The notes beneath the pieces are model-generated. The model made no database searches. It was not told the DNA's origin and was given only the letters and a program-made list of their open reading frames with translations. A stretch of 64,000 bases of DNA from Halomonas sp. 54_146 (GTDB taxonomy: Bacteria > Pseudomonadota > Gammaproteobacteria > Pseudomonadales > Halomonadaceae). Positions within the stretch are counted from its first letter, which is position 1, and every line of letters begins with the position of its first letter. Position numbers and translations under genes: made by a program. The stretch covers positions 10,621-74,620 of the forward strand of contig LGEN01000009.1 of the NCBI GenBank assembly GCA_001507855.1. The letters are read 5' to 3'. Below, piece after piece: positions 40,474 through 64,000 of the stretch.

Positions 40474-41415
40474 ATGCTGAACGCACGGATTAAGCTGCGC
40501 CACCTGCAAGCGTTTCTTGAGGTGGCGCGCCAGCGCAGCTTTGCCCGCGCGGCTGAGCGGCTGTCGATCAGCCAGCCGGGCATTTCCAAAACCATCCGTG
40601 AGTTGGAAGATACGCTCGCTGTTGCATTGTTCGAGCGCACCCCGCACGGCGTTTCGCTTACCCAGGCGGGCTTAACATTGCTTCGCCATGCAGGGCCTGC
40701 TGTGCGCGCCTTGGAAGAAGGCGTAGAAGCCCTGCAGGCGGTGCAAACCGGCGCGCACTGGCTGCGCGTTGGCACGCTGTCTACCGTTGAAAGCCGGCTA
40801 CTGCCCGAAGCCCTGCGCCGCTGGCAGGCTAACACCACCACCGAGCGGGGCGCGCAGGTCGTTACCGGCACCAGTGCCTTTTTGCTCTCGCGTTTACGGC
40901 GCGGGGAGCTGGATGTGGTGGTTGGCCGCATGACCGAAGCGCGCGAAATTCAAGACCTGAGCTTTGAACATCTGTATTACGAACGTCTTCAGCTGGTGGT
41001 TCGCCAAGGCCACCCGCTGCTGGCCGAGCAGGCGCTAGGTGCCCACAACCTCTGCGCGTACCCCTGGATTATCCCACCGCCGCAAACCACCCTACGCCAG
41101 CAGGTTGATAGCTTTTTTGTCCGCCATGCGCTTTTGCCGCCGCCCCTGCGCATCGAGACGCTGTCGCTAGCGCTTGGCCGGCGTTATGCCCTGATTGGCG
41201 AAGCCATTTGGGTAGCCCCAGAAGAGGCGGTGCGCTCTGCGATACAGCGCGGTGAGCTGTGTGAACTTTCCCTGCCTCTAGAGCAACACGGCGGTTCGGT
41301 CGGGTTATGCATCAACCGTTCGTTGCGCCCTTCGCTTGCCGCTGAAGCCTTTTGTGAAGTGCTGCGCGAAGTCGCCGCCGACGTGGTGAAGGGCTATCAC
41401 GCTGAAAGCTCATAA
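40474..41415 (+). CDS. pcaQ: LysR family regulator PcaQ
   Basis: RIKLRHLQAFLEVARQRSFARAAERLSISQPGISKTIRELE; directly upstream of pcaHG. Confidence 0.85.
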   Translation: MLNARIKLRHLQAFLEVARQRSFARAAERLSISQPGISKTIRELEDTLAVALFERTPHGVSLTQAGLTLLRHAGPAVRALEEGVEALQAVQTGAHWLRVGTLSTVESRLLPEALRRWQANTTTERGAQVVTGTSAFLLSRLRRGELDVVVGRMTEAREIQDLSFEHLYYERLQLVVRQGHPLLAEQALGAHNLCAYPWIIPPPQTTLRQQVDSFFVRHALLPPPLRIETLSLALGRRYALIGEAIWVAPEEAVRSAIQRGELCELSLPLEQHGGSVGLCINRSLRPSLAAEAFCEVLREVAADVVKGYHAESS

Positions 41416-41427
41416 CCCATAGGTTAT
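41412..41427. promoter_or_regulatory. PcaQ-type operator upstream of pcaHG
   Basis: ATAACC-CATA-GGTTAT, overlapping the pcaQ stop codon. Confidence 0.8.
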
Positions 41428-41508
41428 GAGGGTAGGGTAAGTTATTAATTGGCAGGTCGCGCATTAACCACGACACTAATGGTTTGTTTCAATCAATGAG
41501 ATAATTGT

Positions 41509-42240
41509 ATGCAAAATGACAATAAACGCTTTGTGACACGCGACCGCAATTGGCATCCGCCCGCCTATGCGCCGGGCTATAAAACCTCGGTGGCGCGTTC
41601 CCCCCAGCAGGCGCTGGTGAGCATGCAACAACCCACGGTATCTGAGCTGACCGGCCCAGACTTCAGCCATCTGCGCATGGGCCCTCACGATAACGACCTG
41701 CTGCTGAACTTTCGCCAAGACCCTCAGCATCAGGGCTTGCCGCAGGGTGAGCGGATTATCATGTTTGGCCGGGTAGTCGATCAGTTTGGCAAGCCCGTAC
41801 CGCACACGTTGGTTGAGATGTGGCAAGCCAATGCGGGTGGCCGTTACCGGCACAAAAACGATAAGTACCTGGCACCGCTAGATCCTAACTTCGGCGGTGT
41901 AGGTCGCTGCTTGACCGATGAGCAGGGTATGTACCGTTTCCGCACCATCAAGCCCGGCCCTTACCCGTGGCCGAACGATATGAACAGCTGGCGGCCTGCG
42001 CATATTCACGTCTCAGTAACTGGCCCTGCGATTTCCACCCGGCTGATTACCCAGATGTATTTTGAGGGCGACCCGCTAATTCCCCTGTGCCCGATCGTGC
42101 ATACGCTGAAAGACCCGCTCGCGGTTGAAACGATGATTGGGCGGCTTGATATGGCGCACAGCAAACCGATGGACTGCTTGGCCTATCGCTTTGACATCGT
42201 GGTGCGCGGCGAGCTGCAAACCTATTTTGAAAATCAATAG
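41509..42240 (+). CDS. pcaH: Protocatechuate 3,4-dioxygenase beta subunit
   Basis: [21 protein letters not shown]...[16 protein letters not shown]. Confidence 0.97.
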
Positions 42241-55862: not shown

Positions 55863-56390
55863 ATGGCAAAATTCTTCCAGGAATTCCGAGAGTTTGCGGT
55901 AAAAGGCAACGTCGTCGATATGGCGGTGGGGATCATTATCGGTGGGGCGTTTACGCTGATTGTGCAGAGCCTGGTGGCGGATGTGATGAACCCGCTGATT
56001 GGCTTGTTGGTGGGCGGTGTGGATTTTTCCAATCTGTTTGTAGTGTTACGCCAAGGGGCGGTGGGCGGCCCTTATGCGACGCTGGCGGATGCCCAGGAGG
56101 CAGGGGCGGTAACGCTAAACCTCGGGCTTTTTATCAATGCGGTGGTCAGCTTTATGATTGTCGCCTTCGTGGTCTTCTTATTGGTACGCACCATTAACCG
56201 ATTAAAGCGCGAAGAGGCGGTAGCGCCTGCGAACCCTACGGAGCAGCCGTGCCCTTACTGTTTGATGGTGGTGCCGATCAAAGCCACGCGCTGTGGCCAC
56301 TGCACAGCAATGTTGGATCAGCCAGCGGAGGCTGAAACGCCGGTTGAAGTTACCTCTGCGCCACCGCAAATGCCACCCGCAAAACCTTGA
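55863..56390 (+). CDS. mscL: Large-conductance mechanosensitive channel with C-terminal Cys4 extension
   Basis: [24 protein letters not shown]; [14 protein letters not shown]; tail CPYC-x10-CGHC. Confidence 0.93.
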
Positions 56391-56397
56391 GCCACTA

Positions 56398-56431
56398 AAA
56401 AGGGCGCCACTGCTGAAGAGGCGCCCTTTCA
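56398..56431. terminator. Terminator-like hairpin between convergent mscL and hemY
   Basis: AAAAGGGCGCC...GGCGCCCTTTC. Confidence 0.7.
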
Positions 56432-56450
56432 CGTTATACCAGAAGCAACC

Positions 56451-57728
56451 CTAGGCGCTTTTCTTAATGGTTTTGCTGTCTTTTTGCTTACTGCCGGGCT
56501 TTTTGCTGTCGTTAGCATCGCTGGGTTGCGGCAGCGATGGCAGCGATTTGGCCAGCATTTCGACGCTGTGGCGATAGTAGAGCTGGCTCTTATTATGCTC
56601 GCCAAGGCTTGCATAGAGACGTGCAAGTTCAGCGCAAACTTCGCCATTGGGGCGCTGACGCTGGCTGGCTTCAAAGTACTCTAATGCCTTTTGCCATTGG
56701 CCGGTGCGCAGCGAAAGCCGACCACACGCTAGCAGCAGCTCGGGGTCGTTGGGGCGCTCTTGAAGCCACTTTTCGGCTTTAATAAGCTGGCGACCCGCAT
56801 CCACATTCAGCAGGCCATAGCGCTTCACCAACCGCGCGTCCCAGTGTTGGTCCAGCGAGTGGTTGAGCAGGCGTTCTGCAATTGGTTCTTCGTTGGCTTG
56901 AATCAACGCTTCACTGTAAAGCACGATCAGCTCGGTATTGCCGCGCAGGTAGTCAGGCATATCTGCCCACAGGCCGCGCACTCGCTCAATGTTAGTGGGG
57001 TTTTGGGCTTCGAACACGATGAGTTCGCGGTAGGCTTTAAACTCTAACTGCTCACGTTCTTGCTGGGTGATTAGCTTTTGCGCTGCCAGGCGTGGAATCA
57101 AGTGCCGCAGGCCTTCCCAATCGTTAACGCTTACATGCACCTGCTTGAGCAGTTTGAGCACCTGCGGATGGTTCGTGAGCTTTTTATCCAACCGGTTGAG
57201 AATTGCCTGGGCTTCTTCCGGCTGCTGGCGCTCAATCATCATCTGCGCTTGCATCAAGCCAACGGCGGTATCGGCTCCGTCGGTGGTGAGCTGCGCCTGA
57301 TTCAGGTGCTCCTGGGATTTAGCGTGATGGCCCTGGTAATGGGCAGCCAGCGCCGCCGATAGGTAGTTAACCAGCGGTGTGCTGGAGTCGTCTGCAGCAC
57401 TCACCAGGGTTTTTTCAGCTTTTTTCCAGCGGCCTTCGGTCAGCGCTACCAAACCGCGCACGGTGCGCTGCATGGCGCGACGGTTGCGGGCACGGCTGTT
57501 CCAGCTGCGAAAGCGCCCCATCGGGCGAATAATGCCGCTGAGCAGGCGCAAAACAAAATGCAGTGCGATAAACGCCGCGAACAGCAGCACCAGGCCAAAC
57601 CAGAACGACGTTTGAACGGAAGCGTCGCCTACGCGGATCAGCCAGTAGCCGGGCACGGACATCATCAGGTGCCCAAACAGGGCACCGACGGCGAGGCCTG
57701 CAACAATGAGGAGAACAAGCTTTCTCAT
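56451..57728 (-). CDS. hemY: HemY-family (protoporphyrin-associated TPR) protein
   Basis: PGYWLIR...QTSFW, ALTEGRWKKAEK, LLLACGRLSLR; follows hemX. Confidence 0.88.
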   Translation of the reverse strand: MRKLVLLIVAGLAVGALFGHLMMSVPGYWLIRVGDASVQTSFWFGLVLLFAAFIALHFVLRLLSGIIRPMGRFRSWNSRARNRRAMQRTVRGLVALTEGRWKKAEKTLVSAADDSSTPLVNYLSAALAAHYQGHHAKSQEHLNQAQLTTDGADTAVGLMQAQMMIERQQPEEAQAILNRLDKKLTNHPQVLKLLKQVHVSVNDWEGLRHLIPRLAAQKLITQQEREQLEFKAYRELIVFEAQNPTNIERVRGLWADMPDYLRGNTELIVLYSEALIQANEEPIAERLLNHSLDQHWDARLVKRYGLLNVDAGRQLIKAEKWLQERPNDPELLLACGRLSLRTGQWQKALEYFEASQRQRPNGEVCAELARLYASLGEHNKSQLYYRHSVEMLAKSLPSLPQPSDANDSKKPGSKQKDSKTIKKSA

Positions 57729-59116
57729 GAATCACCTCCGCTTTGGCCACGCGTCTCATAGCGGTTGTCGATAAAGCGTGCGAGTTCCTGCTGTGAAGCG
57801 CTGATATCCGGCAGCTCCGGCTTTACCTGAGCCTGCTTGAGCTCTTGCAGGCGCGTGATAACGCTTTGTGTCTCGTCACGAGAGGTATCGTAATAGCCGT
57901 TCAGCAGCTGTAGCGCTTTGTCGATGCTGGCTTCATAAAGTGCCTGCTCTTCGTTGAGCAGCGCCAGCTGAGATTGCTCCAGCACTAAGCGCATGCTCTG
58001 GCGCAGGTAAGACTCTTGCTCAGGTGTGATCAACGCTTCCAGCGCTTCATCGTGCTGACGAATCACCACCAGGTCTTTTAGCTCTTGCCCAAAGCGCGCC
58101 AACTGGCGCTGGAAAGTGCCGGTAGGTGGCTGTTCGATGCTAGAGGTGACGGCGCGCTCTTCGATTTCCTGCGAAAGACGCAAGCTCGACAGGCGCTCCT
58201 GCTGGGCATTCAGGGCGAGATAAATACCGGTGCGGTCAACCCTGGGCACGGCATCCAGCGCTGCTAGTTCACTGGCAATCTCACGGCGCACCGTGGTTAG
58301 CGCAGGGTTGTCAGCATCAACCAAGCGGGCGTCAGCGGTACGCAGCAGCGCGGCTGCGCCTTCAACGTCGCCTTCTAACTGTAAGCGCTGGTTAGCTAGG
58401 CGCAGCAGATAAGCCGCTTCGGCATGTAGCCAGTCGCGTTCGTCGGTGTCCTGCTCTTGAGAGAGCTGGTCCAGCACTTGGCCTAGGGTTTGGTCGACCT
58501 CGCTGCGGTAGCTGTCAAGTTCATCACGCAGCTCACCCATGGTGCTTTGCAGCGCTTCATCGCGCTGTGCTTCGCCGCTGTCTAGGCGCGCTGCAAGGTC
58601 GTTAAGCGCTTGTTGCGAGGCATTGCCTTCCGCCTGCTGGGCCAGTGCGTCGATACGCTGCTGCTGGCTTTCAAGGCGTTGCCAGCCTTGCCAAGCGACG
58701 AATATTAAAGCGATTGCCAGGATAATCACCAGGATAATGGCAAAACCACTGCCTTTACCCCCGCCACTGCCTTTACCGCCGCCGCTGCCTTTACCGCCGC
58801 CGCTGCCTTGATGGCCGGTGGCCGGCGGCACGGCGCTGCCTGAGGCCGGTGTTGAAGCGGCCGCGTTAGCTGCAGGTGTTTCTGCCGCCTGAGCACCTTT
58901 GCCACGTCGCCGTGAACGGTTTTGCTTGTTGGCGTTCTGGTTACCGCTCTGGTTGCTGCTCTGAGACGAAGACGTTGATGCCTCCGGCGGTGTGGTCGCT
59001 GTCGTCTCCGAAGCAGAGGCAGAAGCGGGTTTGTCGGTCGTCTTAGCGATGCCGGGTGAGGCATCTGCAGACGTCGGTTGTGCATCATCCTGATCGTTTA
59101 TTTGTTTGCTGCTCAT
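57725..59116 (-). CDS. hemX: HemX-family protein with long low-complexity N-terminus
   Basis: WLHAEAAYLLRLANQRLQLEGD, LITPEQESYLRQ, QVKPELPDISAS. Confidence 0.88.
   Translation of the reverse strand: MSSKQINDQDDAQPTSADASPGIAKTTDKPASASASETTATTPPEASTSSSQSSNQSGNQNANKQNRSRRRGKGAQAAETPAANAAASTPASGSAVPPATGHQGSGGGKGSGGGKGSGGGKGSGFAIILVIILAIALIFVAWQGWQRLESQQQRIDALAQQAEGNASQQALNDLAARLDSGEAQRDEALQSTMGELRDELDSYRSEVDQTLGQVLDQLSQEQDTDERDWLHAEAAYLLRLANQRLQLEGDVEGAAALLRTADARLVDADNPALTTVRREIASELAALDAVPRVDRTGIYLALNAQQERLSSLRLSQEIEERAVTSSIEQPPTGTFQRQLARFGQELKDLVVIRQHDEALEALITPEQESYLRQSMRLVLEQSQLALLNEEQALYEASIDKALQLLNGYYDTSRDETQSVITRLQELKQAQVKPELPDISASQQELARFIDNRYETRGQSGGDS
58746..58808. repeat. 18-bp in-frame tandem repeat (GSGGGK) x3.5 in hemX
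   Basis: CCACTGCCTTTACCCCCG, CCACTGCCTTTACCGCCG, CCGCTGCCTTTACCGCCG. Confidence 0.9.
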
Positions 59117-59129
59117 CTGTCGCTAGCCC

Positions 59130-59909
59130 TTAGTAAGTTCCTTGATCGACATCGGCACCCTGTGAGTCGCAGGTCTCCAACGCCGCTATCAACGCAGCGG
59201 GCGTTGCTCCAGACGCCACTTTGAGGTTACAAAAACCTAGTATGCCTGCCAGTGTAGCTAAACGGCGGCTGGAAACGATTAGCGGTTGGTTCAAGGCCGC
59301 CTGATTGCACCATTTTGCCAGATGTTCTAGCAGTTCGCTGCTGGTGACGATCAACGCCCGGTAATTACCTGAAAAAAGGCACGTTTGCTGGGCGGGTGCA
59401 GGGGGGTGGAGCGTGCGCCGATAAACGGCCACACGAGTAATATTAGCACCTCGCGTGGCAAGCGTTTCTGCTAATAGCGTGCGGCCACCTTCACCCGCCA
59501 CCAGTAGAATGCGCTGGTTATCTAGCTGCTGCAGCGAAGCCAGCGCCAGCAACGCTTCGCTAGTATCTTCGCCGGCGCTGGGCGAAGGCACGTGTACGCG
59601 CACACCCAGCTGGTCATAAAGCGTTGCTGCGGTGGCACTGCCGACGCTGTAATAGTCAATCCCGACCGGCAGTTGGGGCCAAAAGCGGTCGAGCGATTCG
59701 CTTAAGCAAACGGCGGCAAAGGGGCTGACCACTACGATCTTATGGTACTGATCAATATCCAGCCAGATACGCCGCATCGCGGGGTCTTCTGGCAGCGGCT
59801 CAAGCTGCATGACGTCCAGCGTTTCAACGCGCTCGCCCTGGGCGCGTAATGCAGCGGCTAGCGCCTCACCGCGCTCGCCAGGGCGGCAGATCAGTACCGG
59901 TTGGCTCAT
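59130..59909 (-). CDS. hemD: Uroporphyrinogen-III synthase
   Basis: [37 protein letters not shown]. Confidence 0.92.
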
Positions 59910-60850
59910 ATCTCGCGGCCATACACCTCGGCCAAAATAGCGCCTGCGCCTTGGTCGAGGAGTTCTTCGGCAATGCGAATGCCCAGCGCTTCGGGCTCAT
60001 GCATTGAACCCCGCCCTTCGGCGCGCAGCACTTCGGTACCCTCAGGGTTGCCGACTAAGCCGCGTAACCACAGGGTTTCATTGTCGCTGTCTAGCACTGC
60101 GTGGCCTGCGATGGGCACTTGGCAGCCGCCTTCTAGGCGGGTATTCATTGCCCGCTCGGCGCGCACTCGTGTGGCGGTGTCGGCGTCATCCAGCGGGGCT
60201 AGCAGGGCAATAAGGTCAGGGTCGTGCAGGCGGCACTCAATGCCTAGTGCGCCTTGGCCGCAGGCGGGCAAGCACACTTCTGGCGGCAGCGCCTGGGCAA
60301 TTCGCTCGTCTAAGCCCAAACGTTTTAAACCAGAAGTGGCGAGAATAATGGCGTCGAATTCTTCGGCATCTAACTTGGCAAGCCGCGTTTGCACGTTGCC
60401 ACGCAGGTTAAGAATTTGCAGATCAGGGCGGGCTTCGCGAATTTGCAGGCCGCGCCGTAGGCTTGCGGTGCCAATACGGGCGCCTTCAGGCAGCTCTTCA
60501 AGGCTGGCGTAATGGTTAGAGACAAACGCATCGGTGGGGTCGGCACCCGCTAGGATGACCGACAAACCAAGCCCTTCAGGAAAGTGCATCGGCACGTCTT
60601 TCATGGAATGGACGGCAATATCGGCGCGGCCATCCAGCATGGCGTCTTCCAGCTCTTTAACAAACAGCCCCTTGCCGCCAATCTTGGAAAGTGGGGTATC
60701 AAGAATCTTGTCGCCCTTGGTAGAAAGCGCTACAAGCTCGACTTCCAGGCCGCTGTGTTCCGCCATTAAGCGGTCGCGAACGTACTCGGCCTGCCACATG
60801 GCCAGTTGACTTTTGCGCGTGGCAATGCGCAATTTTGTGATAGATAGCAC
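59906..60850 (-). CDS. hemC: Porphobilinogen deaminase
   Basis: [43 protein letters not shown]. Confidence 0.98.
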
Positions 60851-60954
60851 GTTATTCTCCCTATACCGCAGACACGGCGTGTCAAACTATGATAAACCTC
60901 ATCATAAAGCACCCGGCCACGCAGTAAAAATAACCTGAACAATTAAACGCCGGC

Positions 60955-63054
60955 GTGAACCCGTTATTTACCTCTTTGTTATCTACCTTTTTAGGCGATG
61001 CCATGCTTTCAGTTGTGCCTCAGTGTGAGCTAGACCAGTTCTTTCTGCTTTCTCAGGATCTGTTCTGCTGTATTGACGTTGAAGGCACGCTGCTGCAAGT
61101 CAATCCAGCCTTCGAGACGCTGCTGGGGTACTCGTCCGAACAATTAATCGGTCGTGCCTGTGGCGTCGTTGTGGATCCCCTTGATCACCCCGTGATCGAG
61201 CGGGCGTTACAGCGAGTGCATCAAGGCGAAAAGGTTACCCCCTTTGAGGTGCGCGCTATTTCCGCAACCGGCAAGCAGCACTGGTTAGAAATTTCGCCGT
61301 CGTTGGGGGAGGACGTGATTTACGTAATCGCTCGGGTGATTACGCGGCGTAAAGCTAGCGAACAACAGCTAAAATTATTGGAGCGTAGTGTTGAATCAAG
61401 CACCAATGGTGTGCTTATTGTCGATGCTCAGAGCAGCGATCTGCCTCTGGTTTACGTCAACGCTGCCTTTGAGCGCATTACCGGTTATTCGCGCAGTCAG
61501 GCACTGGGGCGTAACTGCCGTTTCCTGCAGGGCGCAGAGACCGACCCCGCCACCGTCAAGCAGCTAAAGGTAGGGGTTACCGAACAGCGTGAAGTCCACG
61601 TGGTTATCCGCAACTATCGGCATGACGGCACGGTTTTTTGGAACGACCTGCACATTTCACCAGTACGTGATGAGAACGGCCAAGTGACGCACTTTGTTGG
61701 CGTGCAGAACGATATCTCCGAACAGCGCGAATACCAGGCCCAGCTAGCCCATAACGCCCATCACGACGCTTTAACGGGACTCCCCAACCGGGTAATGCTG
61801 AATCAGCGCTTGATGCAAGGGTGTGTGCTGGCAAGACGCTACCATCGCTATATCGCCGTGTTGTTTATTGACCTGGATGATTTTAAACCCATTAACGATA
61901 CCCTCGGCCATGATGTCGGTGATTTTATTCTGGTTGAGGTCGCCAAACGGTTAGAAGAGGAGTTACGCCCCTGGGATACCGTGGCGCGCTTTGGTAGTGA
62001 CGAGTTTGTTGTGCTGTTGCCGGATCTGGCCCATGAAAATGATGTGGTGCAAGTCGTTGAGCGCTTACTTCTGCGACTTGCTCCGCCTTACTGGTATCGC
62101 GGTAGCGAGCTGCGTATTACGGCGAGTATTGGGATCGCCATTGATGATGGCAGCATGGAGAACCCTCGCCAGTTGATTCAGCAGGCGGATTTGGCGATGT
62201 ACAAGGCCAAGCGCCGGGGGCGTAATACCTATCACTGGTTTACCGAAGATTTAAACCGCAAGGTCAGCGAACGTGTGAAATTACGCAGTGCGCTGCAGCA
62301 AGCTATCGAAAAGCAGCAGTTTAGGCTGCATTACCAGCCGCAAATCCATGCGCCAACAGGGCGGGTGGTAGGCATAGAAGCTTTGCTTCGTTGGCACCAC
62401 CCAGAACGCGGCAATATTCCGCCTTCCGATTTTATAAGCCTTGCCGAGGATACTGGCCAAATTATTCCCATCAGTGAATGGGTGTTGGCGACCGCCTGTC
62501 GAGATGCTCAGCAGCTTAATGCTATGGGGGTTGGCACTATTATCATGGCGGTCAATATCTCGCCTATGCAGTTTCAACGGCCGGGGTTTTTAGCCTCTAT
62601 TGAGCAAGTATTAGCTGACAGCGGCTTAACGCCTGCGCTTTTAGAGCTGGAGTTAACTGAAGGCGTGATGATGGACAGCACTGAGCAAGCCATCCAAGTG
62701 CTACAAGATTTACGCACGTTGGGAATACTTATTGCCCTGGATGACTTTGGAACAGGCTTCTCCAGCCTGAGCTACCTAAAGCGTCTGCCGATTAATAGAA
62801 TCAAAATTGATCGCTCTTTTGTTCGCGATGTCATCACTGACATCAATGATGCGGCCATTATTGATGGCGTCGTTGCCATGGCGGGAAAAATGGGGTTAGA
62901 GGTGTTAGTAGAGGGCGTGGAGACGTGGGAGCAGTTCGCCTACTTAGAACAGCGTAAGTGTGACTATTTTCAGGGTTACTACTTTGCTCGCCCCATGCCC
63001 CTCAGCGCTCTCTGTGCGTTTCTGAACTTACCGCCCGCGTTTACTGCTCGCTGA
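60955..63054 (+). CDS. PAS-LOV-GGDEF-EAL c-di-GMP signalling protein (start may be ATG 61003)
   Basis: PAS1; LOV motif GRNCRFLQG, NYRHDGTVFWN, FVGVQND; GGDEF variant GSDEF with RPWD I-site; EAL with EALLRW, DDFGTGFSS, EGVE. Confidence 0.92.
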   Translation: MNPLFTSLLSTFLGDAMLSVVPQCELDQFFLLSQDLFCCIDVEGTLLQVNPAFETLLGYSSEQLIGRACGVVVDPLDHPVIERALQRVHQGEKVTPFEVRAISATGKQHWLEISPSLGEDVIYVIARVITRRKASEQQLKLLERSVESSTNGVLIVDAQSSDLPLVYVNAAFERITGYSRSQALGRNCRFLQGAETDPATVKQLKVGVTEQREVHVVIRNYRHDGTVFWNDLHISPVRDENGQVTHFVGVQNDISEQREYQAQLAHNAHHDALTGLPNRVMLNQRLMQGCVLARRYHRYIAVLFIDLDDFKPINDTLGHDVGDFILVEVAKRLEEELRPWDTVARFGSDEFVVLLPDLAHENDVVQVVERLLLRLAPPYWYRGSELRITASIGIAIDDGSMENPRQLIQQADLAMYKAKRRGRNTYHWFTEDLNRKVSERVKLRSALQQAIEKQQFRLHYQPQIHAPTGRVVGIEALLRWHHPERGNIPPSDFISLAEDTGQIIPISEWVLATACRDAQQLNAMGVGTIIMAVNISPMQFQRPGFLASIEQVLADSGLTPALLELELTEGVMMDSTEQAIQVLQDLRTLGILIALDDFGTGFSSLSYLKRLPINRIKIDRSFVRDVITDINDAAIIDGVVAMAGKMGLEVLVEGVETWEQFAYLEQRKCDYFQGYYFARPMPLSALCAFLNLPPAFTAR

Positions 63055-63135
63055 GCGACGACTCTGGTACACTTTCCGCAACGACTCCCACTTTCCGTAA
63101 CGACTTTTACGTTTTGTCAGCAGGATATACCTTCG

Positions 63136-64000
63136 ATGAGCCAAGCTACGAATCAGTCTTGGGGCGGTCGCTTTAGCGAGCCCACCGATGCCTTTGTCGC
63201 ACGCTTCACTGCGTCTGTTACTTTCGACCAGCGCTTAGCGCGTCAAGATATTCAGGGCTCCATTGCCCATGCCGCGATGCTGGCCCGCGTGGGCGTGCTG
63301 ACCGATGACGAGCGCGATGCCATTATCAACGGTCTGAACGAGATTCAGGGTGAGATTGAGCGTGGCGAATTCAACTGGTCGGTGCCGCTTGAAGATGTGC
63401 ACATGAACATCGAAGCACGGCTGACCGACAAAATCGGCATTACCGGCAAAAAGCTGCACACCGGGCGTTCGCGCAACGACCAGGTAGCCACCGATATCCG
63501 CCTGTTTATGCGCGATGAGATTGATGTCATTGAAGTGGAATTGAAGCGCCTGCGCGAAGGCATGATTGAGCTTGCCGACCGTGAAGCCGACACTATTATG
63601 CCGGGCTTTACGCATCTGCAGACCGCCCAGCCGGTTACCTTTGGTCACCATATGTTGGCGTGGCAAGAGATGCTGGCCCGGGATCACGAGCGCTTATTAG
63701 ACTGCCGTAAGCGCGTTAACGTGATGCCGCTGGGGGCCGCCGCGCTGGCCGGGACGACCTACCCGATTGATCGCCACGTAACAGCAGAGCTACTAGGCTT
63801 TGACCGCCCGGCGGAAAACTCGCTAGACGCCGTTTCAGATCGTGATTTTGCGATTGAATTTACTAGCTTCGCCAGCATCCTATTGATGCACTTGTCGCGC
63901 ATGAGCGAAGAGCTGGTGTTGTGGACCAGCGCCCAGTTTAACTTTATTGATCTGCCCGACCGCTTCTGCACCGGCTCATCTATCATGCCGCAGAAGAAGA
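63136..64000 (+). CDS. argH: Argininosuccinate lyase (N-terminal part, runs off window end)
   Basis: Manual translation: [16 protein letters not shown]...EDVHMNIE...[16 protein letters not shown]...[12 protein letters not shown]...GSSIMPQKK. Confidence 0.97.

Follow-up and report, generated by a model that had tools for sequence, protein, structure and literature searches.

In a stretch of 64,000 nucleotides from Halomonas sp. 54_146 (assembly GCA_001507855.1, contig LGEN01000009.1, positions 10,621 to 74,620, hereafter the window), the gene lying between hemC and argH encodes a protein with two PAS domains, the second of which is of the LOV type, followed by a GGDEF and an EAL domain. Considering its domains, its residues, a structural model and the analogy with characterised proteins, we think that this LOV protein is probably a phosphodiesterase (PDE) of cyclic di-GMP (c-di-GMP) controlled by its LOV domain, in which the GGDEF domain, whose motif reads GSDEF, would have a regulatory role. 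An initial annotation of the window, made from the sequence alone, had proposed a light-regulated c-di-GMP PDE, possibly tied to haem synthesis. The domains, residues and precedents described below make the first part of this proposal likely, but we found no basis for the tie with haem.

The only long frame at 60955-63054 on the plus strand is an open reading frame (ORF) of 699 amino acids (aa) with a GTG start, in which Pfam finds all four domains (Table 1). In an AlphaFold2 model (40 homologs), the mean predicted local distance difference test (pLDDT) score is 84.7 and four domains are well folded. A whole-chain structural search with Foldseek returned DosP as the best match (E 7e-57). The named NCBIfam equivalogs (DibA, DosP, Tlr1612, and PdeR-like) did not reach their curated whole-protein cut-offs. 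The best of these was DibA, with 554 bits against a cut-off of 980, and YtvA_fam scored 162 bits against a cut-off of 250 with a match confined to the LOV part. Membership in DibA, DosP, or the other named equivalogs was rejected because the scores are far under the cut-offs. To follow the conservation of individual residues, we used 116 full-length homologs (from P0001-P0120), which are the basis of the family counts given hereafter.

Its fold, its Cys motif and its flavin-contact residues all mark the second PAS domain as a LOV domain of the canonical type. The motif GRNCRFLQG (61507-61533) is followed by NYRHDGTVFWN and FVGVQND, and the LOV signature, the Cys codon, the NYRxDG..FWN segment, and the Gln in FVGVQND are all found where the initial annotation had placed them. 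The top 60 matches to the LOV segment in the PDB (6e-38 to 2e-27) are LOV proteins or LOV fusions. They include the LOV histidine kinase 9vf7 (6e-38), YtvA (6e-33), PpSB1-LOV (8e-33), and MsLadC (1e-30). Since the second PAS domain matches such solved LOV structures at 6e-38 to 1e-30, its signature is not a chance match. The alignment with YtvA revealed that the equivalents of N61, C62, R63, Q66, N94, N104, and Q123 are kept. Among the YtvA residues that we take to be flavin contacts (N61, R63, Q66, R79, N94, N104, and Q123), six of the seven are identical in the LOV protein, and these are present in 115-116 of the 116 homologs. The remaining one, R79, corresponds to Lys205, a conservative replacement at a position that is Arg in 95 homologs and Lys in 11. 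A single member of the family, the 687-aa homolog P0054 of Halomonas sp. BC1, lacks the adduct cysteine as the result of a natural Cys-to-Gly change (GRNGRFLQG). The genome of strain 54_146 also encodes, outside the window (contig C6, ~41150-41580, plus strand), a second LOV protein of ~143 aa with the motif YRDCRFLQ, which is of the PpSB1/PpSB2 type.

The N-terminal PAS domain is of another kind. Among solved structures, it is best matched by a diguanylate cyclase's PAS domain (8px4, E 4e-12). We considered whether it might be a second LOV or flavin domain and rejected this idea, as it is devoid of the RFLQ, N, N, and Q contacts. It does have a Cys at the LOV-equivalent position (GRACGVVV), and this residue is found in only 75 of the 116 homologs. 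The N-terminal part of the protein is also variable in length among the orthologs located at the same hemC-argH locus (L002-L012 and L043-L059), whose numbers of N-terminal PAS modules differ and which have 683-692, ~815, ~927-934, or ~957 aa. The 927-aa orthologs carry an extra PAS pair that is ~48% identical to residues 13-274 and has no LOV motif. As orthologs of the short and the long type are mixed with one another on the tree, N-terminal PAS modules were repeatedly gained or lost.

The connection from the LOV domain to the GGDEF domain is much more constrained. The linker is 21 aa long in all 114 homologs where both of its bounding motifs were found, and in the model its helix spans residues 239-253 (683-aa numbering). 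A previous work defined a short-linker class of 21 aa for LOV-GGDEF proteins and for the LOV-GGDEF-EAL proteins studied earlier (Vide et al., PMC10396304). The LOV protein falls in this class, and the order of its LOV, GGDEF, and EAL domains is that of the SL2 type. SL2, a LOV-GGDEF-EAL protein of Synechococcus elongatus PCC 7942, is a PDE stimulated by blue light (Cao et al. 2010, as covered in the reviews PMC8846402 and PMC10124867), and of the two LOV-GGDEF-EAL proteins studied in this species only SL2, and not SL1, has light-dependent PDE activity. One could thus imagine, with SL1 as an example, that the LOV domain studied here is no light switch in vivo and that the PDE is either constitutive or responsive to redox or another signal that reaches it via the flavin or the N-terminal PAS domain. 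The latter has no assigned ligand, and the differing count of N-terminal PAS modules among orthologs is compatible with such a role. Yet, the presence of the photoactive Cys and of the flavin contacts (the R79 position aside) in 115-116 of the 116 homologs is hard to explain without photochemistry, and the length of the linker is strictly fixed. Hence, we regard this explanation as improbable.

The EAL domain has everything that is expected from an active enzyme of this type, as the initial annotation had noted in calling its catalytic motifs intact. None of the EALxR, N, ExLxE, DDFGTG (loop 6), K, EGVE, and QG elements is missing, and none varies among the aligned residues of the 116 homologs. 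The modelled domain superposes on the active EAL domains of MucR, BifA, MorA, TBD1265, and PdeA with template modelling (TM) scores of 0.91-0.95 and root-mean-square deviations of 1.5-2.1 Å. The GGDEF-EAL tandem as a whole is 42-43% identical to those of MorA and of PA0575, the latter having been solved with guanosine triphosphate (GTP) in the GGDEF site.

The GGDEF domain departs from the GG(D/E)EF active-site motif of active diguanylate cyclases by one residue: it has GSDEF (codons GGT AGT GAC GAG TTT), in which only the second Gly is changed. The RxxD I-site, RPWD, lies five residues before GSDEF, so that motif and canonical spacing are as described in the initial annotation. The latter also called the domain degenerate, which now seems overstated. 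The equivalents of PleD D327, N335, D344, K442, and R446 are present together with the I-site, and they are conserved in 115-116 of the 116 homologs. Among the homologs with GSDEF, the mean pairwise identity is 86% in the GGDEF domain, 85% in the EAL domain, and 80% in the LOV domain; among those with a GGDEF motif, the corresponding values are 79%, 74%, and 73%. The GGDEF domain is therefore not decaying, since it is the most conserved domain in both groups.

The position of the second Gly is polymorphic in the family, with Gly in 67 homologs, Ser in 48, and Ala in one, and the alternation of Gly and Ser requires at least seven changes on the family tree. We regard this recurrent switching between GGDEF and GSDEF as a modest new point. 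Given the number of switches, the restriction of the substitution to Ser (and a single Ala), and the fact that the GGDEF domain is still the most conserved one, a tentative possibility is that lineages may repeatedly toggle the photoreceptor between a bifunctional cyclase/PDE and a PDE-only form, as an adaptive tuning of the response to light. This raises the question of the activity of the GSDEF form itself. If it still cyclized GTP, the LOV protein would be a light-switched bifunctional enzyme, where light shifts the balance between cyclase and PDE. The conservation of the GGDEF domain, the retention of all other residues binding GTP and Mg, the I-site, and the canonical motif of the 67 homologs mentioned above would fit such an enzyme. 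There is also a GSDEF protein of Pseudomonas fluorescens with a c-di-GMP-dependent phenotype after an activating mutation, from which its production of c-di-GMP was inferred. Against this, SesB of Thermosynechococcus, a GSDEF/EAL protein, is a light-regulated PDE whose cyclase activity is not detectable, and truncated LOV-GGDEF constructs derived from LOV-GGDEF-EAL proteins with linkers of 21 aa showed no light-regulated synthesis (PMC10396304). On balance, we find a bifunctional enzyme unlikely in the present case.

We favour instead the LOV-controlled PDE with a regulatory GSDEF domain, which could work as follows. A one-component photoreceptor enzyme would act in the cytoplasm, probably as a dimer, and its LOV domain is expected to bind flavin mononucleotide. 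Blue light would lead to a covalent adduct between the flavin and Cys188 (699-aa numbering), and the conserved Gln251 and the beta-sheet would relay the change to the 21-residue helical linker. The latter could then reposition the GGDEF-EAL tandem, with the EAL domain hydrolysing c-di-GMP to pGpG. By analogy with SL2, light most likely accelerates hydrolysis, and cells would then be driven out of the sessile, biofilm state. The GSDEF domain most likely does not synthesise c-di-GMP efficiently. It would be kept as a regulatory and scaffold module, in which the active site binds GTP and the RxxD I-site binds c-di-GMP, as suggested by the precedents of PdeA, RbdA, PA0575, and SesB, the last having the same GSDEF motif. 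In this respect, PdeA of Caulobacter, whose motif is GEDEF, is activated by GTP.

Some observations weigh against this preferred mechanism. First, the LOV-GGDEF-EAL architecture alone is no guarantee of a response to light, because SL1 showed none. Second, of the two arginines with which YtvA binds the phosphate, R79 is replaced here by Lys. Third, the GSDEF site may retain some cyclase activity, by analogy with the P. fluorescens GSDEF protein. Finally, a scan of the intergenic region upstream of the gene with the sigma-70 consensus found no promoter for the LOV gene on the plus strand, only a site directed towards hemC.

The genetic context was the other component of the initial annotation, and its description of the ORF at 60955-63054 and of a divergent hem operon was borne out, except for the start codon. 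The product is probably of 683 aa, and not of 699 aa, with the ATG at 61003 being the likelier start. This is based on the length of the closest homologs retrieved by our search (683-692 aa), on the existence of a record of the exact 683-aa product at NCBI, and on the alignment of this ATG with the start codon of orthologous loci. Public annotations differ in this respect, as the 699-aa form starting at GTG is the call of JGI/IMG. The hem genes, hemC-hemD-hemX-hemY, are on the minus strand and diverge from the LOV gene, which is followed on the plus strand by argH. The gap between the LOV gene and hemC (whose GTG is at 60850) is 152 base pairs (bp) with ATG 61003 and 104 bp with GTG 60955. The GC content of the LOV gene (~50-55%) is lower than that of its neighbours (57-62%). 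A search of the region 56000-64000 for structured RNAs or riboswitches gave no Rfam match at E <= 0.1. In the neighbouring hem genes, we observed that HemX (57725-59116 in the window, minus strand) has an extended N-terminal part of low complexity, where Ala, Ser, Thr, and Gln abound and three tandem GGGKGS repeats precede the membrane segment.

The divergent arrangement of the LOV gene and hemC had led to the suggestion that a shared promoter region couples them functionally, thereby coordinating light sensing with porphyrin synthesis. To assess this idea, we carried out the survey of hemC-argH intervals that had been proposed with it, covering 25 genomes of the genus and 26 from the family's other genera. 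In Pseudomonas aeruginosa PAO1, the interval between hemC and argH is occupied by algZ/algR, in agreement with the initial annotation; no paper naming all three genes came up in our literature search. In the family's other genera, hemC and argH are direct, divergent neighbours in 26 of the 26 genomes, separated by 188-412 bp, and no gene lies between them. Within the genus, it occupies the interval in 18 of the 25 genomes, and the site is empty in the other seven. This retained placement in the genus, and the divergent orientation of the LOV gene at 152 bp from hemC in the window, would speak for a coupling of the two genes. However, the tree of HemC+HemD requires at least four events of gain or loss of the LOV gene at this site. 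At least two of the empty sites (in genomes G011 and G004) are secondary losses, because they are nested inside occupied clades. In G004, a loss also agrees with the retention of sequence specific to the region upstream of the LOV gene in occupied relatives. In G011, GGCATGCC and GCTGAGCG are similar to what immediately precedes the start codon of the LOV gene and surrounds its stop codon; we considered a deletion scar, but these matches are too short for proof. Two other empty sites, L061 (G016) and L062 (G014), have longer intergenic regions (346 and 267 bp when the start codons on both sides are counted). The L061 region contains short direct repeats that are TCTCTGCCCGGCTGTATCGTTTT-like.

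The regulatory sequences around the gene tell a similar story. Within the genus, the block with the putative hemC promoter does not differ between occupied and empty sites, nor does its leader, and its -10 and -35 regions are found again throughout the family. On the other side, the GACTCTGGTACACT element upstream of argH is conserved in 33 genomes with an empty site, namely all seven of the genus and the 26 of other genera (L017-L042), where it is exact or has one mismatch. Since the elements of hemC and argH are the same with or without the LOV gene, the latter seems to sit between two ancestral promoters that were unchanged on its arrival. Little conservation is seen from the hemC -35 region to the start codon of the LOV gene. 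Distant homologs of the LOV protein are encoded in chemosensory or two-component clusters and not beside haem genes. The one in Halomonas chromatireducens adjoins receiver-HD_5 proteins, a kinase, and a second PAS-GGDEF-EAL gene, and another in a Pseudomonas lies at the end of a CheA/CheY/MCP cluster. We found neither a linkage with the hem cluster beyond the genus nor a regulatory sequence shared with it. By these comparisons of loci, the LOV gene is an accessory, genus-specific, and repeatedly lost insertion between the apparently independently promoted hemC and argH. That it came to lie next to hemC seems accidental, the outcome of a gene insertion. Hence, the suggested coordination with porphyrin synthesis is unsupported, considering that the insertion is limited to the genus and subject to losses, that the hemC and argH elements are unchanged, and that distant homologs are in signalling clusters. 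We see a functional coupling with hemC as highly improbable.

Table 1. Features of the LOV gene and of its surroundings (coordinates in the window; Pfam residue ranges refer to the 699-aa ORF)
Feature	Coordinates	Strand	Remarks
hemC (hydroxymethylbilane synthase)	59906..60850	-	TIGR00212, 1e-107; GTG start after AGGGAG; start region conserved in the genus
hemC promoter-like site	60901..60928	-	TTTACT, 16-nucleotide spacer, TATGAT; sigma-70 consensus scan
PAS-LOV-GGDEF(GSDEF)-EAL coding sequence, most likely form	61003..63054	+	683 aa; ATG start, 48 nucleotides downstream of GTG 60955
PAS1 (N-terminal, non-LOV)	61051..61353	+	Pfam PAS_4 33-133; pLDDT ~88-92
LOV domain	61378..61722	+	Pfam PAS/PAS_9 142-256 (PAS_9 4.5e-34, 151-256); matches to solved LOV structures; pLDDT 90-95
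Putative photoadduct Cys codon (TGC)	61516..61518	+	Cys188 (699-aa numbering) = Cys172 (683-aa numbering); aligns with YtvA Cys62; Cys in 115/116 homologs
21-residue helical linker	61711..61773	+	From D of the DIS motif to L of DxLT (D253-L273)
GGDEF domain	61756..62226	+	Pfam GGDEF 268-424 (1.6e-46); GSDEF 61993-62007; RxxD I-site RPWD 61966-61977
EAL domain	62287..62994	+	Pfam EAL 445-680 (2e-78); complete catalytic residue set
GACTCTGGTACACT element upstream of argH	63060..63073	+	Extended -10-like, TGnTACACT; starts 6 nucleotides after the LOV stop codon
argH (argininosuccinate lyase)	63136..63999	+	TIGR00838, 2.5e-122; truncated by the window end

The LOV protein can be compared with several known systems. 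In our literature search, SL2 is the only PDE of the LOV-GGDEF-EAL layout that was shown biochemically to be stimulated by blue light. The two proteins share the core order of LOV, GGDEF, and EAL domains, a canonical Cys-containing LOV domain, and the 21-aa short-linker class (PMC10396304). They differ in that SL2, which is no ortholog, comes from a phototrophic cyanobacterium, and the LOV protein has an extra N-terminal PAS domain and the GSDEF motif; the two are compared here by their architecture. MsLadC (8c05, PMC10396304) also has LOV and GGDEF domains joined by a heptad-patterned helical linker, fits the D(I/V)(T/S)...DxLT definition of the latter, and is matched by our LOV domain at E 1e-30. 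It is, however, a LOV-activated diguanylate cyclase with an active GGDEF domain, no EAL domain, a linker of 35 aa, and a caged dark state, while the LOV protein has a linker of 21 aa and presumably acts through its EAL domain.

Other resemblances are in the way a sensor may act on the EAL domain. DosP (PdeO) of Escherichia coli has the same PAS-PAS-GGDEF-EAL order, with a sensor PAS that controls the EAL domain through the GGDEF domain and a PDE output, but its sensor is a haem-binding PAS domain for O2 instead of a flavin LOV domain, and the identity is ~25%. PA0575, RbdA (PA0861), and MorA of P. aeruginosa, together with PdeA and SesB, are precedents for a GTP-binding GGDEF domain regulating an EAL domain. 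None of these has a LOV sensor, and SesB uses a cyanobacteriochrome GAF domain.

The closest catalogued relative is WP_022521218.1 of Halomonas sp. A3H3 (684 aa, P0002), an ortholog that is 89% identical to the LOV protein and has the same length class and the same GSDEF motif. Relatives of this protein in the genus have the gene at the same hemC-argH locus. WP_022521218.1 was listed as PAS+LOV+GGDEF+EAL in a census of LOV proteins published in 2014, along with many Halomonas entries of the family, one of them an 816-aa ortholog from strain TD01 (Losi et al., PMC4844311, supplement S1). Its entry is only bioinformatic and mentions neither GSDEF nor the locus. The census also reported a short LOV protein in most Halomonas genomes, and GGDEF or GGDEF+EAL outputs in ~18% of bacterial LOV proteins (PMC4844311). 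Since an 89% identical ortholog was already in this census, the LOV protein is not new but an uncharacterised ortholog of a catalogued member of a well-known architecture.

What the present analysis adds is of an evolutionary nature and small: the switching between Gly and Ser, the varying number of N-terminal PAS modules at one and the same locus, and the polymorphism of presence and absence between hemC and argH. These three points provide a natural comparison set to understand the role of the GGDEF domain in GGDEF-EAL photoreceptors. To our knowledge, no member of the LOV-GGDEF-EAL family from Halomonas or Vreelandella has been characterised. Halomonas strains are industrial chassis organisms. 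The LOV protein would be a compact natural candidate for the light-controlled lowering of c-di-GMP.

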